Below are positions 830 through 29,340 of a stretch of 64,000 nucleotides of DNA, piece by piece. Both the position numbers and the translations under genes were made by a program. A model generated the notes under the pieces. It was not told the DNA's origin. It saw nothing but the letters and a program-made list of their open reading frames with translations, and searched no databases. Position 1 is the first letter of the stretch, and every line of letters begins with the position of its first letter. The stretch spans positions 64,001-128,000 of the IMG/VR virus record IMGVR_UViG_3300032254_000001; one strand, given 5' to 3'. The DNA is from a virus (Duplodnaviria; Caudoviricetes).

Positions 830-3537
830 TTACCATCTCATCTTAGCTTCGAATACTATACCACCGTCTTCTGTAGCACGTACATCGTATTCTATGTCGC
901 TTTTAAATTCATATTGTATTGCTTTATCGTAAAAGTGGAAACCACTGTCTTTGATAAGCAATACAGAATTCTCTAATTCAAATGTTTCGCCATCGTATAC
1001 TTTAGCAACTCCATAAGCTCCTGTGTATCCTATTAGGAGTATAATTGCAAGACCAACCATTACTTTAAATAATCCGTCTATAAATCTGATACCCATGTTA
1101 TTTTCCTTGTAGTTCGCTATTGGCCCATTCTTTGAATGTCCAGGAGTTAATAAATTCATCGCCTACATCGAGGCTAACAAAGTCTTTACCTTGCATACCT
1201 TGTTCACTGTAACCAACGTCAACATCGTTAAGCTCGAGTACCTCGAGACATCCACGTAAATCATCCATAAACTGATCGTCTGTGTAAATTAGTCCGTCCT
1301 CATTGACGTCCCAAGTTGCGGTATCAAAGTACACGCGCAATTCACCATACTGCTCGTCCATTGACGAGATATCAAGTTTAATTTTAGTTGCCTGCACTTC
1401 TTTGCAAACGTCCGACCAGTATCCAGTACCGTCTGTGTTAAGAATAAAATTAAACTTCATTTCTCGTACGTCGTGATGCATGTTATTCGCCTTTAAATTT
1501 TAATGCTTGTAACCTGTAAAATTCGTCTGTAAGCTCTGTTATGTTTTCGTCGCTTACGCCTTTGCTCCAAAAGAACTTTTCAACTTGATCACGTTCTTTG
1601 CAGTTTACGTGGTCCATTGCCATTAACTGGCAGAACGCTTCCCTGCGGCTAATTGATTGTGATGCTGATATCTGTGCAACTTCACGATCCAGTTCTACCA
1701 TTGCGAGCATTTCGCGTTGGTTAGCTACGGGAGAATACATATCCTGTATAATATCAGGTATGGCATCTTCTACAGCTTCGCATATGTCGCATACTGCCTC
1801 ATTGGCTGTTTCGTTCTCGCCAGTGAAGATCTGGCGTAGTGTGCTAAGTAACTTCATATTAGTTTCCTCGTGTTGCACTCTACTTATCTCCATAATCCTA
1901 CCATCCTAAAGATCAATACCAAGCAATGCGACATAAAGCTAATTGGGCCTAATGCTAATGCAAGTACTGAACCAACAACACTTGAAAAAGTGCTGCCTGT
2001 GCTGTACACAAGGTACAATGTACCAAAGCCAGCTACGTACCAACCAAGGATTAACTGCCATACACTTACAAGATCCCGGTTAAGAATAATGTTGTATTCC
2101 ATTGGGGTTATAGCTGTACCAACAACAAATGCAAATAATGAAAGTAAAAATGAAATAGCTGACAGACCTTGATTTTCATCTGCGTTTGGATTGTGATGTG
2201 TTTCAATCATTACGTGCTTCCTCTTCTAGTTGTTTAGCTCTTTCATTGAATGCTGCTACTGCTTCGTCAACTTCGTCGCCATTATAGCAAACTTTAGCAC
2301 CAGACAATACTCTAATATTACCAAAACCATTTGCTTCAATTGTAACATGTCTAATAGACATCTTGCCTTCTATCATTCTAAATGAAACAGAACGATATTT
2401 TGATTTTTCAAGCAACATGCTTGCTTTAAGTTCTTCAACGTTCATTCTGCATCTTTAAAATATGGTTGTTCTTTAATTGCTTCAATTGCAAGTCTGCGAG
2501 TACGCATCCAAACTTGAAGCTCTTTGCAATTCACCGGCCCAATCATTTCAGCTATTTCATTTACCTCAGCAAATATAGCATCGAGGTCATTTTGATCTAA
2601 TTCGTACTTGTCAACTATGTTAGCAAGTCTTGGATCAGTAATTTTAAATTCCATTAAATTACTGCCTCAACAGTTAGGTAACCATATGGAAGGTTAAACG
2701 TGTATTCAAAATAACCATCATCCATGTATTCGTTATCCTCTGCATCACGTAACCAACGTAGAGCAGTTTCACGATCACCTGCGCCTGCTGCCTGTAGCTC
2801 AACAAGCTTACTTTCAAATTGTTTAACGCAAAGCTCTTGAGCAGCTTTTGATTCTAAATACGCTTGTTCAGCAGCCTTACATAAATCATCATACGCAACT
2901 TCTAATTCATTGAATGTCATGTTACGTGTATCAGGACACATACTGCGAGTTCCGTATGCTTCCTTGGCCAGGTTGGACATTACAGCTTCCATCTCCCAAC
3001 GCTTGAAATCTTCGATAGTGTGGATGCCTTGCTCATTCCACCATTCGAATGATTCAGCTAACATACCGATAAAAGTACCGGGGTTAGCATCCATCTCAGC
3101 TTGTGATTTAGCGTTCTCTGCTTTAATGAAATCGATAAGTTCTATCATGGTAGTTCCTACTGGTACGTTGGTACGATAAAAATGTTTTGGTAGCCTGAGT
3201 CTAAATTTGCAGCTCTTGTATAAGCTGGAAACCACTCAGTACGCAAAGCAAGTCTAATAGACTTTTTGCCTGGTGCAACTAACACACCATCTTCTTCTAC
3301 CATTCCAATCTCTTTAAGGGCAGCAACCAATTCGTTCATTAGCGTATCGGTTTGTTCGTTATGTGCATTGGTAACAGTTAGAGGACCGTAACAGGCAGCG
3401 TATATACCTCTAACACGCTTACCAGCTCCATCTGTGTAGCACTTGCTAGTATTATGCATGTAACTACCTGAGCTTAGTTTAACAAAGCTTAAACCTTTGC
3501 CCTTTAAAACTACTGCTATGTCTGCCTTTGTAACCAT
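830..3537 (-). other. Run of ~8 small hypothetical early genes
   Basis: Tightly packed ORFs 830-1096, 1098-1460, 1483-1893, 1884-2210, 2203-2445, 2442-2654, 2654-3148, 3157-3537 with SD motifs, downstream of the promoter at ~3570-3600. Confidence 0.75.
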
Positions 3538-4146: not shown

Positions 4147-5178
4147 CTATTCTCCTGCGAATGCTTGCTTAACTATGCTCACACCTTTAGCGATCTTGTC
4201 ACGCAATTCCTGGACTTTAGCTAGCTCTGCGGGTGTAGTAGCTTTGTCTAATTTAGCTCCACGTCCTGCTTTGTCAGCTTTGTCTAAGTAGTGCTTCAGG
4301 TATGTATCAATCAGCTCTTGTGCGTTATTGTAATCTTTAAGAACATGCTTTCCATAAAGACCATTAAGTTCAAAGCTCTTAGCTAGTCCTTTAACTGTAT
4401 GCACAAGGTCTGTGATCTGTACGCTTGCTGTCTTTAGTCCTGGATACTGCTGAAGCTCGGGATCTACTTGCATGCCACTTGAGTCGCCATTGTTCACTGC
4501 TTCGTAAACAAACTTTAGAATGTCAAGTCCGAAGTTTTCGATGTCGCTTGTAACTTCAATGACTTGGTCTGGCTTACGACCTTTCTGGAAGTTAATAGGC
4601 TCACCGTTTTTAATTTTCATTAATACAGCTGATTGCAAACTCATGTTAATTACTTCACCTAGTGTAGAATATAAGTTGCCTGTAATCAAACCCTTTATAC
4701 CTTGCATAGGTGTCTTGCGCCATCTATCCCATTTAGCTAAACGCTGCACGGTCCACAACATATCAACCTGCACATATACATCATCACTTAGTTTAAAAAT
4801 TGGATGACCGTTAGTAGGCTTGCCTTTGTCGTAAATGTAGTCTGGTTTTGCTGTAGCGATAAATTGATCTATTAGCTCATTATAGTGTTTGGTAATTTGG
4901 AATGACGACTTACCTTCAATGTCAGGTGCAATCATCTGCATATCAATATCACCGTACTCTGTTTCCGGCTCGTCAACATTAACGTAAGCCGTACTACCTA
5001 GTGGATGACCCATCTTAACTGGATCAATTCCTTGTGAATACAGGTACTTGTTAAGACCGTTAACGAATACTTCAACAGTCCTAAGAGCTGCTTTCACAAT
5101 CTCTGGGTTAAGTTTTGTTTTTTGGGTAATCACGTCCTCCCAGCCGCCCTCGTTTAAAATAAATTCATTTGCCCTCAT
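4147..5178 (-). CDS. Pol-beta-superfamily nucleotidyltransferase-like protein with capsid-targeting-like N-terminus
   Basis: LGS...YGDIDM motif; likely start MRANEFILNE overlaps the HNH stop (ATGA). Confidence 0.55.
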   Translation of the reverse strand: MRANEFILNEGGWEDVITQKTKLNPEIVKAALRTVEVFVNGLNKYLYSQGIDPVKMGHPLGSTAYVNVDEPETEYGDIDMQMIAPDIEGKSSFQITKHYNELIDQFIATAKPDYIYDKGKPTNGHPIFKLSDDVYVQVDMLWTVQRLAKWDRWRKTPMQGIKGLITGNLYSTLGEVINMSLQSAVLMKIKNGEPINFQKGRKPDQVIEVTSDIENFGLDILKFVYEAVNNGDSSGMQVDPELQQYPGLKTASVQITDLVHTVKGLAKSFELNGLYGKHVLKDYNNAQELIDTYLKHYLDKADKAGRGAKLDKATTPAELAKVQELRDKIAKGVSIVKQAFAGE

Positions 5179-5855
5179 TTTTTCACCTTTCCTAATTTCC
5201 ATCCTGTAGGTTGTTCACCCTTAACAAAAAATTTTGTAATTATTCCGTTGTTATAGCCGCATTTACCTGTGTTGCCTGGCGTATGCCCTTTAAGACTTTT
5301 TGATATTTTCTGTCTTGTTTTGTCAGACACTGAGTGACCCAATGTAATAGTTCGCATTATTTCTTTCGTAGCATCTGACATTTTCGGACGATCGAAGTGT
5401 CGCTTGCCTCTGTTGGCTTTCCCTATTTTCTGTTTAGTTTCTTCAGTTTGTGGATGTGATATTCCTTTGCTTGAAATCGACATTTTTAATTTAGATTCGT
5501 CTGACCACTTGCACCCTTTATTCCAGCTTGGTTTGCCGTATGCAGGATTATTTTCTCCCATTTTAGCTTTGGATATTTTTTCTTTTGTTTCAGCTGATGC
5601 TTTGCGTCCGTTTATTGATAGGATTAACGATTCTTTGATGTATTTGTCGCCACGAAGTTTATGTATGGTCCAATGATCATCTGGATGCAATGCTATTAAA
5701 TTAGATGGGTGATGAATACGTGGATCGTTTTTATCATTGAATAAGCACTTTGGCTTTATGTGATGTACATGATAACCTTCCGGTATTGAATACTCAGGAT
5801 AGAACTGCTGCCAGTATAATTTTAAATTCTTTCTGTAATCTTTAGAATAGGTCAT
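5175..5855 (-). mobile_element. Free-standing HNH homing endonuclease with NUMOD3 repeats
   Basis: YHVHHIKPK...NLIALHPDDHWTIH; repeated SEETKxKISxA-type motifs (SAETKEKISKA, TEETKQKIGKA, SDKTRQKISKS). Confidence 0.9.
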
Positions 5856-6881: not shown

Positions 6882-7259
6882 TTAAAATCCGAATATAATT
6901 TGGTACGAGATCAATAACGTTGTTATGTGTATAGCTTGATCAAAGCCAATGGTTACAAAGAACCAATGTACTTTCTTCTCAGCCCAAAGCTTTGAAGTGA
7001 TACGCGATGTACACCAATCAGTTATAAAGTGAGCAATACCGTTTATAAGTGCAAAGTACCATCCTAGCCATAGGAAGAATGGAAGACTGTATGCAGCAAT
7101 ATGAAGGCCAAGCCACTTATTGCTTGAGCTTTTCTTAGTAGCCATACTGTCGGACTGTAGTATAAAGTCAGCGAAGAAGTGCATCCAAACTAAAATGATT
7201 GCAGGATGCATCAAATATACAGTAATGAAATTCCAAATTGCATCAAACGTTTCTAACAT
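6882..7259 (-). CDS. DUF3307-like membrane protein
   Basis: HFFADFILQ...WLGLH...HFITD...DQAIH histidine pattern with hydrophobic helices. Confidence 0.8.
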   Translation of the reverse strand: MLETFDAIWNFITVYLMHPAIILVWMHFFADFILQSDSMATKKSSSNKWLGLHIAAYSLPFFLWLGWYFALINGIAHFITDWCTSRITSKLWAEKKVHWFFVTIGFDQAIHITTLLISYQIIFGF

Positions 7260-7289
7260 ATTATACCTTTAAATAATGACAGACTTTAA

Positions 7290-7761
7290 TCTATTGTTAT
7301 CACGCATACAACCCACACCACTCCGAAGAGAAGGACCTAATCCTACGGTAGGAGCTTCGCGATCTGTCGTGAGCTCGATTGCCAAGTACTGTACGGTCTG
7401 AGTCTAATGCTTTGTATGCTACGCTTGCAACGCCTGCACATTAGTCTCGGATAACCACCCTTCCTCGTTTGTCAAATACACCTTCAGCCTTTACGCTGTG
7501 GATGCCGAGTTTAACAGTACAAATTTATTTATGCAGGCATTCCACCTGCTTGCTGGTTTGAGCCACGGCGGTCCCGGCTTCGGACTTCCCCATTCCTTAC
7601 GGCGCACTTACAGTTTCATAGCTCAAGGGCCTTTGCTCCACTGCTTGCGTTCTTTGGTCCACAGACAATCATTTATGTGTCTTAACCGGGTTCTTAGCTA
7701 TGTTTTCAATTTAGCCGTTTCGTCTCCACTATATAGGCATTCGGGCACATAAACGTATTAC
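7290..7761 (-). ncRNA. Candidate large structured non-coding RNA
   Basis: No credible ORF, GC-richer than flanks, own promoter (TAGACA-17-TATTAT at 7768-7796), several hairpins with GNRA/UUCG loops. Confidence 0.6.
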
Positions 7762-7818
7762 AAGTACATAATAACACCAAAATTTTAGCGTGTCTAGAGC
7801 TTTTGGTTAAATACCATT

Positions 7819-8292
7819 ATGGGAATTAAAATTTATATTTACTTAATCATATTTGCATTGCTTGCATCAGCAGTCGGTGGAGCCGTTTGGTACTACAAAT
7901 GGTCACAAGCTGAAATCAAAGTGCTTACCGCAAACAATGTGAAGCTTAACTTAGCAGTGGATACTCAAAAAGAAACCATTGCTACTATGGAAAAGGATGC
8001 ACTTCTTCAAATTGATATTCTTGCAGAAGTTAATGTAGAGTTTGAAGTTGCTCGTAGCGAAAACAATGCATTACGAAAGAAGCTTGCAAAGCACAACATA
8101 TCTTACCTTGCTTCCAAGAAGCCTAAAACAGTGGGCAAGATACTTACCAAAGCTACAAACAATGCCGAACGTTGTTTTGAAATATTAAGTGGTTCACCGT
8201 TAACAGAAGCGGAGAAAGCTGCAACTAAAAAGAGTCAAGCTAACAACGAATGCCCATCTCTTGCTAATCCAAACTATGTGGTGAAACCATGA
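7819..8292 (+). CDS. i-spanin (Rz-like)
   Basis: Single N-terminal TM helix then coiled coil; overlaps downstream lipoprotein gene; late promoter TAAATA at 7808-7813. Confidence 0.8.
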   Translation: MGIKIYIYLIIFALLASAVGGAVWYYKWSQAEIKVLTANNVKLNLAVDTQKETIATMEKDALLQIDILAEVNVEFEVARSENNALRKKLAKHNISYLASKKPKTVGKILTKATNNAERCFEILSGSPLTEAEKAATKKSQANNECPSLANPNYVVKP

Positions 8293-29266: not shown

Positions 29267-29340
29267 TGGCGTCTGTGAAGGGGTTCGAACCCTTGTCCTG
29301 GGATTTAGAGTCCCGTGCTAAACCGCTCAGCTACACAGAC
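29267..29340 (-). tRNA. Amber-suppressor tRNA, anticodon CUA, with encoded CCA
   Basis: GTCTGTG/CACAGAC acceptor, D arm GCTG-AGCGGTT-TAGC, anticodon loop CT-CTA-AA (29306-29308), 4-nt variable loop, T arm AAGGG-TTCGAAC-CCCTT, G73-CCA. Confidence 0.9.

Follow-up and report, generated by a model that had tools for sequence, protein, structure and literature searches.

A putative three-module RNA locus in a jumbo phage and a compact phage RNA family absent from Rfam

The locus described here is in a viral contig of 344,483 bp that carries direct terminal repeats, the genome of a jumbo phage (IMG/VR record IMGVR_UViG_3300032254_000001). Positions refer to a 64,000-nucleotide stretch of this record, bases 64001-128000, which we call the window. 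The genome has 40% G+C and 39 tRNA genes, mostly in one array about 22 kb from the locus. Microbial-mat metagenomes are the only sequencing runs with near-identical DNA (three DNA runs, one of which may be the source sample), and no RNA run is listed among the matching runs. At 7260-7818, a gap of 559 nt is bounded by two divergent genes, a minus-strand gene for a DUF3307 membrane protein (6882-7259; Pfam DUF3307, E 4e-8; PHROG 2470, "membrane protein") and a plus-strand gene for an Rz-like spanin (7819-8292). A first-pass annotation had singled out this gap as the only long one without a credible open reading frame (ORF), had called it GC-richer, and had proposed that it encodes one large structured noncoding RNA (ncRNA) of about 470 nt. 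It is indeed the largest stretch of the window free of plausible ORFs (other gaps of at least 250 nt are occupied by abutting ORFs of 50-90 aa), and its G+C reaches 0.49-0.50 at 7300-7700, whereas the flanks have 0.34-0.40. Comparison with relatives indicates that the locus is a chain of three separable folded modules, not one 470-nt RNA, and that the first of these, module A, represents a widespread and compact phage RNA family absent from Rfam.

The gap shows little coding potential. It has no credible ORF under genetic code table 11, and reading TAG as glutamine or applying table 4 (TAG/TGA read through) opens none; the code of this genome is standard, with ORFs covering 93% of it and TAG ending 27 of 286 long frames. 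Only one ORF in the gap exceeds 60 aa, an antisense frame of 84 aa that starts with GTG (7498-7752, plus strand). It was judged not to be a gene, having no match in Pfam or PHROG. This sole candidate frame is kept only in one related locus (L145; related loci are given here by L numbers) and is lost in the homologue L009.

A sigma-70-type promoter is predicted on the minus strand at 7768-7796, as the first-pass annotation had proposed. It consists of a -35 element TAGACA (7796-7791), a 17-nt spacer ending in TG, and a -10 element TATTAT (7773-7768). A consensus scan gave 10 of 12 matches plus the extended -10 TG, and transcription is predicted to start near 7761. Both hexamers and their spacing are kept in five lineages (the window, L145, L358, L359, and L009) despite differing spacer sequences, which is the signature of a working promoter. 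No minus-strand terminator is predicted at 7260-7300, between the RNA and the DUF3307 gene, and the two are therefore probably co-transcribed.

Homologues of the whole locus were useful for delimiting its parts. Locus L009, which is on the same contig as L002 and L141, was found via flanking proteins and has a homologue of about 71% identity upstream of its DUF3307 gene. Locus L145 was obtained from pattern scans and has the same order of spanin, RNA, and DUF3307. Loci L358, L359, L361, L362/L363, L357, and L360 were added from contigs encoding close DUF3307 homologues. In alignments of homologues at about 70% identity, invariant blocks alternate with helices changed on both sides, which are the compensatory changes that the first-pass annotation had suggested looking for. 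Separate profile hidden Markov models (HMMs) were built for three segments of the window RNA (A, B5', and B3') and for an extra element, C, from the relatives. The matches follow the order A-B5'-B3' in the window (7755-7533, 7521-7385, and 7382-7274), L009, and L145. In L362/L363, module A is followed by a 169-aa ORF and then B3', and in L357 B3'-C occurs with no module A beside it; the modules are therefore separable. Locus L358 has A, two diverged B5'-like copies (recognized by eye), and B3'-C. Locus L360 also has B3'-C, on a contig that ends just upstream of B3' and is uninformative on the presence of A. What stands of the proposed large ncRNA is that it is non-coding, structured, served by its own promoter, and new with respect to Rfam 15; its unity as a single 470-nt molecule does not hold, because the locus is modular.

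Module A (7533-7755, minus strand; HMM match at genome positions 71764-71531) is an enlarged member of its family and is predicted to fold into helices P1-P4. P1 has 10 bp in the window (5' strand 7755-7746, 3' strand 7679-7670) and encloses a conserved loop, CCCGAAUGCCUAUAU...GGUUAAGA, together with a lineage-specific inserted hairpin (7716-7696). Across the family P1 has 9-11 bp and closes a loop of the form CC(C)GAAU-CC-N5-GG-UUAAGA, in which some members have inserted hairpins. It is paired at 96.6% in 13 type-A members with two to five pair types per position, compared to 18-50% when the 3' strand is slid by 1-3 nt as a control. This strongly covarying helix is the pairing of TTTATGTG with CACATAAA in the first-pass annotation. 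It is followed by a conserved strand, J1/2 (AUUGUCUGUGGAC, 7657-7669; family consensus AAUAGUCUGUGGA). Within this strand GUCUGUGG is identical in 22 of 22 aligned members, yet the motif is one of the two filters by which members were selected.

The middle of module A holds an optional central module (7595-7644), with a kink-turn-like (K-turn-like) internal loop followed by P2; the stems flanking the loop covary. In the window the loop is formed by GCAGUGGAGC (7644-7635) opposite GCUAUGAAACUGU (7622-7610). A GUGGAG...AUGAA unit of this kind is present in about nine members, including the window, L141, L145, L277, L157, L326, L244, and L158. It may be a K-turn. The sequence would allow a C-stem, a 3-nt bulge, tandem sheared G-A/A-G pairs, and an NC-stem (CAGU-G-GA-GC stands opposite GC-UAU-GA-A-ACUG), and the short C-stem of 2 bp changes from GC/GC to GA/UC to GU/AC across members. 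P2 is the hairpin CC-GUAA-GG (7602-7595), already seen in the first-pass annotation, and it proves to be a GNRA-capped hairpin with a covarying stem and a loop of GUAA, GCAA, or GUGA.

In the 3' part of module A, P3 pairs AGCCG (7579-7575) with UGGCU (7565-7561) and covaries. Its length in the family is 3-7 bp, with 4 bp or more in 25 of the 26 members; it ends 0-2 nt from CAAACC and differs in sequence in nearly every lineage. The long-range helix CCCGGTT/AGCCGGG proposed previously finds no support; AGCC pairs locally with GGCU (GGUAC with GUACC in L009). The strongly conserved strand J3/4, CAAACCAGCAAG (7560-7549), which was used for recruitment, leads into P4, GCAGG-UGGAAUG-CCUGC (7549-7533). 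With a 5-bp stem and a 7-nt loop, UGGAAAG or more generally UGGAA(A/U)G, P4 has the proportions of a tRNA T-arm. The proposed GCAGG/CCTGC helix is thus confirmed by covariation: P4 is paired at 96.2% over 26 members, with three to five pair types at four of its five positions, and slid controls give 22-56%.

The extra length of module A in the window is due to the hairpin in the P1 loop and the K-turn-like unit, and the smallest members have about 135 nt (L153 and L156). In the L146 group the 5' flank can pair with the 3' tail as a closing helix, which is not general. Two pseudoknots are possible, UGGUU/AACCA and CUAU/AUAG, both involving invariant strands. When applied to MAFFT alignments of the full family, RNAalifold found no helix except P4, or P1, as insertions put the helices out of register; pairs were therefore counted by script on anchored strands. 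The G-U pairs of the helices are valid only on the minus strand as RNA, and together with the orientation shared with neighboring tRNAs (see below) they fix the strand of module A. These results bear on whether the stretch could be a DNA-level element (an origin, packaging, or recombination site) or an unrecognized or decayed protein gene. We regard this as highly improbable. The stretch is G+C-rich and repeat-poor, it is situated in a divergent promoter region, and an 84-aa antisense frame does exist. However, that frame is not kept in L009, the changes in the helices are compensatory and include pairs that only one strand allows, the promoter upstream is conserved, and members of the family are inserted co-directionally in tRNA operons.

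Members of the module A family were recruited with the pattern CAAACCAGCAAG-N2-5-GTGGAA and then with nhmmer, and were required to have GUCUGUGG upstream. About 26 distinct members of 135-330 nt were found in viral (IMG/VR) and metagenome contigs, including contigs from a human-gut assembly. The window itself has the features of a member: a P1-closed loop, with a lineage-specific insert, followed by the AAUAGUCUGUGGA strand (7755-7657), and then a GNRA-capped P2, a P3 that abuts CAAACCAGCAAG, and a P4 loop of the form UGGAA(A/U)G (7602-7533). Among 185,579 species-representative prokaryote genomes there were 75 exact matches to the pattern, none of which also had the second motif, GUCUGUGG. 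A blastn search of GenBank phages with the window gap and a short family member gave no match, and a literature word search for the conserved strands returned primers only. An earlier pattern scan with GTGGAGCAAAGGCC was set aside; nearly all of its matches were chance, including 13 copies of one unrelated phage. Locus L144 was also rejected, as a chance match in coding sequence.

Known RNA families were compared using cmscan and Rfam 15 (4,227 models). The whole window was scanned at the gathering score and positions 7150-7900 at E<=10; L154 8640-9060, L358 860-1700, and L153 1500-1750 were scanned at E<=5-10, and 14 related loci at the gathering score. No module had a match at the gathering score or at E<=5-10, and the scans gave only tRNAs and an unrelated group I intron. 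The Rfam check suggested by the first-pass annotation, which had considered that the RNA might be new, thus came back without RNase P, GOLLD, ROOL, or tmRNA even at E<=10. The T-box model (RF00230) did not match at E<=10, and no specifier loop or antiterminator was recognized. ARAGORN found no tRNA or tmRNA in the gap; the sole tRNA of the window is at 29267-29340.

The first-pass annotation had also noted words resembling those of RNase P RNA in inverted order, and it considered that the large ncRNA might be a permuted or derived RNase P ribozyme scaffold. As strings, these words are present. AGAACCCGGUUAAG resembles conserved region V (CR-V), GGGGAAGUCCG resembles conserved region I (CR-I), and GGAGCAAAGGCC resembles GGAGCAAGGCC of E. 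coli rnpB. In other respects the resemblance fails, and descent from RNase P seems most unlikely. None of the RNase P models matches even at E<=10 (bacterial A, RF00010, or B, RF00011, archaeal, nuclear, or type T). The CR-I-like word is located in a variable linker and hairpin and is not conserved in the closest relatives (GGGGAAGTCCG in the window is GGGGAAGCACG in L009 and GGGGAAGAACG in L145), and its proposed partner, AGCCGGG, forms P3 by local pairing of AGCCG. Of the CR-V-like word at 7694-7680, only GGUUAAGA is kept across the wider family, and the locus is modular instead of one RNA. Module A and bacterial RNase P RNA are alike in the similarity of ACCCGGUUA to CR-V and of GGAGCAAAGGCC to GGAGCAAGGCC, in an AGCAA...UGNAA pair, and possibly in a link to tRNA suggested by the genomic setting. 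They differ in that module A has no covariance-model match, has the words in inverted order, and has a family core of 135 nt; without a conserved CR-I partner, there is no P4 pseudoknot as in RNase P.

Other phage-borne RNAs offer partial parallels. GOLLD (RF01998) and ROOL (RF03087) are also structured ncRNAs encoded by phages or prophages, often near tRNA genes, and their biological role is obscure; module A matches neither model at any threshold tried, is much smaller (135-330 nt), and has another set of helices. The species 1 and 2 RNAs of phage T4 (rnaC and rnaD) are small stable RNAs, also of obscure role, whose genes take up slots among the tRNA genes of a phage cluster and are transcribed together with them. 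Homology to them was considered and rejected, as the T4 record, read directly, shows neither the conserved strands nor the helices of module A. The manA RNA (RF01745) and other phage-borne orphan motifs are likewise structured orphan RNAs of uncultured phages that occur as leaders or free-standing genes; module A matches neither manA nor any other Rfam model.

Genomic context is informative on how module A may be used. In at least six lineages it is embedded in phage tRNA arrays and has the orientation of the tRNAs. The distance from P4 to the start of the next tRNA is 9-13 nt in L257 and L336, so that module A fills a "tRNA slot" in these arrays. In L277, it comes right after an ORF stop, P4 and a run of seven U residues form a predicted intrinsic terminator, and a new promoter follows. 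The ORFs downstream of module A encode unrelated proteins, no protein family is common to its neighbors across lineages, and in more than 20 lineages there is no DUF3307 gene nearby. The tRNA slots, the terminator of its own, and the unrelated downstream genes fit a self-contained RNA gene, not a regulator of one kind of gene. The association with tRNA genes is an enrichment and not a rule.

Two further features were seen in gut phages that carry module A. In the group L146/L151/L154/L155 (e.g., L154 8884-9024), module A belongs to a tRNA array, and downstream of it comes a conserved ORF of 46 aa that is itself set between tRNAs. Locus L146 has a group I intron match at 3017-3224.

The two other modules of the window are lineage-specific. 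Module B5' (7385-7521, minus strand) is a variable middle domain with HMM matches in the window, L009, and L145 only. Its closing helix, GUACUG (7520-7515) with CAGUAC (7391-7386), covaries among the three sequences, and L145 has an insertion of about 95 nt in this domain. B5' includes CAAACGAGGAAGGGUGGUUAUCC (7473-7446), an echo of the J3/4-P4 part of module A (CAAACCAGCAAG-stem-GUGGAA), and it may be a diverged partial duplicate of A.

Module B3' (7274-7382, minus strand) is a conserved leader directly ahead of the DUF3307 operon. It is present in nine lineages and is at the head of that operon in every case. It has a closing helix of GACAGAU (7368-7362) with AGUCUGUC (7285-7278), a UUCG hairpin (7330-7321), and an invariant GUUGUAUGCGUG within 7314-7301. 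RNAalifold on the nine lineages predicted 26 pairs, 11 of which are kept through changes on both sides. Of the small hairpins that the first-pass annotation had listed here, CTC-TTCG-GAG has the equivalent GUC-UUCG-GAC in L009, and TCCTA-CCG-TAGGA is kept only in part. In L358 (1478-1677), L360 (175-374), and L357 (1910-2090), module C (approximately 170-200 nt) separates B3' from the DUF3307 operon. Both of its ends resemble those of B3' (CUCACRGCAGRU...AAAGYCUGC), which makes B3' and C look paralogous. Together they define a second, narrower RNA family. Gene callers had over-extended the DUF3307 start across module C, giving calls of 167 aa (P0005) and 148 aa (P0008).

Taken together, the reading that we favor, by a modest degree of confidence, is a three-module RNA locus under a sigma-70-type promoter, in which module A is a stable, trans-acting scaffold and B3' acts in cis on the DUF3307 operon. 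Transcription from the host-type (sigma-70-like) minus-strand promoter would yield a transcript of about 490 nt that runs into the DUF3307 gene. Module A would be released from this primary transcript by ordinary RNA processing, as it must be where it lies between tRNAs. It would then act in trans as a folded scaffold binding a conserved host or phage partner. The tRNA setting and the T-loop-type motifs suggest that such a partner is probably in the tRNA or translation machinery. A lineage-specific leader for the DUF3307 operon would be formed by B3' together with B5', and with C where relatives have it; as B3' always heads that operon, an action in cis there is most likely.

Several observations weigh against this reading. 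The minimum free energy of the whole region is no better than that of shuffled sequences (z +0.94 for the minus strand and -0.52 for the plus strand), and with folding energy of a single sequence this unremarkable, the evidence for structure is comparative and comes from the relatives. Recruitment fixed CAAACCAGCAAG...GUGGAA and members were filtered on GUCUGUGG, so the invariance of these strands is partly an effect of recruitment, and the pseudoknots within them are beyond the reach of covariation. Module A also occurs in two complete phage genomes that lack tRNA genes altogether, which weakens the link to the phage's own tRNAs. At least 14 members have an ORF with a ribosome-binding site (RBS) 15-50 nt past P4, which also fits a cis-acting leader. 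Finally, with no terminator between the modules and DUF3307 in the window, all three could be one long 5' untranslated region.

The last two points lead to the main rival explanation, that the whole 490 nt, module A included, is one cis-acting 5' leader (riboswitch-like or attenuator-like) of the DUF3307 operon. The unbroken path into the DUF3307 gene agrees with it, as does the order of promoter, RNA, and DUF3307, which is kept in the window, L145, L358, L359, and L009, and most family members have an RBS-bearing ORF within that 15-50 nt. Nevertheless, we consider a single leader rather improbable. Module A occurs with unrelated downstream genes in the more than 20 lineages that have no DUF3307 nearby; the next gene is a tRNA in L257 and L336; and in L277 module A begins after the stop of an ORF and has a terminator at its end. 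In L362 an ORF stands between A and B, and in the window the RBS of DUF3307 (AAAGG, 7270-7266, minus strand) is outside the predicted B3' fold. Moreover, the other 21 DUF3307 loci from a protein search of viral contigs are without all of the modules.

T-box Stem I, RNase P, and the ribosomal L1 stalk dock the tRNA elbow via a double T-loop module (PMC3664808; PMC4810234). An AGNNA...UGNNA pair and a "GNUG" apical loop are the published double T-loop signatures of such docking (PMC3664808; PMC4810234). A more specific proposal than the scaffold reading is that module A itself binds tRNA, with the T-loop-type AGCAA in CAAACCAGCAAG, the GGUGGAA loop of P4, and the UGG-containing strands gripping the elbow and/or the 3' CCA, and that it would give the phage a means to sense, sequester, or protect tRNAs. 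Both parts of this proposal, taken jointly, seem unlikely to us. Module A does lie in tRNA arrays, on the tRNA strand, in at least six lineages, and the phage of the window and its relative have 39 and 31 tRNA genes, respectively. The segment CAAACC-AGCAA-G followed by the GG-UGGAA loop matches both AGNNA...UGNNA and the GNUG signature, and E. coli rnpB carries AGCAA and UGAAA. T-box Stem I also contains a K-turn, and enlarged members of the family have the K-turn-like loop.

On the other side, the stem between AGCAA and UGGAA is 5-7 nt and variable, which is hard to square with a fixed interdigitated contact, and the P4 pentad is placed like that of a tRNA T-loop, unlike that of the T-box apical loop. 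All members share AGCAA and UGGAA, but the search pattern had fixed both. There are complete phages that have module A and no tRNA genes, no T-box or RNase P model matches, and no specifier-like element was found. The likeness to T-box Stem I has two sides. An AGNNA pentad lies 5' of a short stem with a GNUG/UGNNA loop, enlarged A has the K-turn-like loop, and module A is often 5' of an ORF; in contrast to Stem I, the spacing of the pentads varies, and what follows downstream is either a tRNA gene or a gene for one of several unrelated hypothetical phage proteins. If module A did bind tRNA in this manner, phages, which often have it within tRNA operons of their own, would be using it during infection for sensing, sequestering, or shielding tRNAs, and the enlarged A of the jumbo phage would be a tRNA-docking RNA fused to further regulatory modules. 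It would also be a fourth natural class of RNA that recognizes tRNA by T-loop docking, after the L1 stalk, RNase P, and T-box leaders, a claim that we hold to be improbable.

GOLLD, ROOL, and T4 RNAs C and D are examples of phage-encoded structured RNAs whose function has long been a puzzle. Module A adds to them a compact and widespread family (approximately 26 lineages, from gut and microbial-mat samples among others). Its clearly defined, well-covarying fold, with about 135 nt in the smallest members, makes it far more tractable for biochemical and structural work than the giant RNAs. Its placement in tRNA operons, together with its T-loop and GNRA motifs, provides a testable hypothesis, namely binding of tRNA or of the translation machinery. 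The locus also shows that independent modules strung together can make up a long "ornate RNA" of a jumbo phage, which bears on how such gaps are annotated and modeled.

Genes around the related loci also deserve mention. In the 250-kb relative that contains L009, proteins of the GGDEF-EAL type (663 aa) and the HDOD-like type (286 aa), with domains assigned by eye, are encoded directly upstream of the RNA (L009 221-3065); by their domains, these are predicted cyclic-di-GMP signaling genes carried by a jumbo phage. In other phages (L364 123-832 and the contig of P0010), a cytidylyltransferase-like gene (PF01467, NMN-adenylyltransferase type) is 3' of DUF3307, which hints that DUF3307 could be a small transporter tied to nucleotide or NAD metabolism. 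In the window, an HNH/NUMOD3 homing-endonuclease gene (5175-5855, minus strand) is part of the minus-strand gene string that includes DUF3307 and lies three ORFs downstream of it. The tRNA at 29267-29340 (minus strand) is a lone tRNA with a CUA anticodon (amber suppressor), labeled "tRNA-Pyl" by ARAGORN, and it lies far from the main tRNA array.

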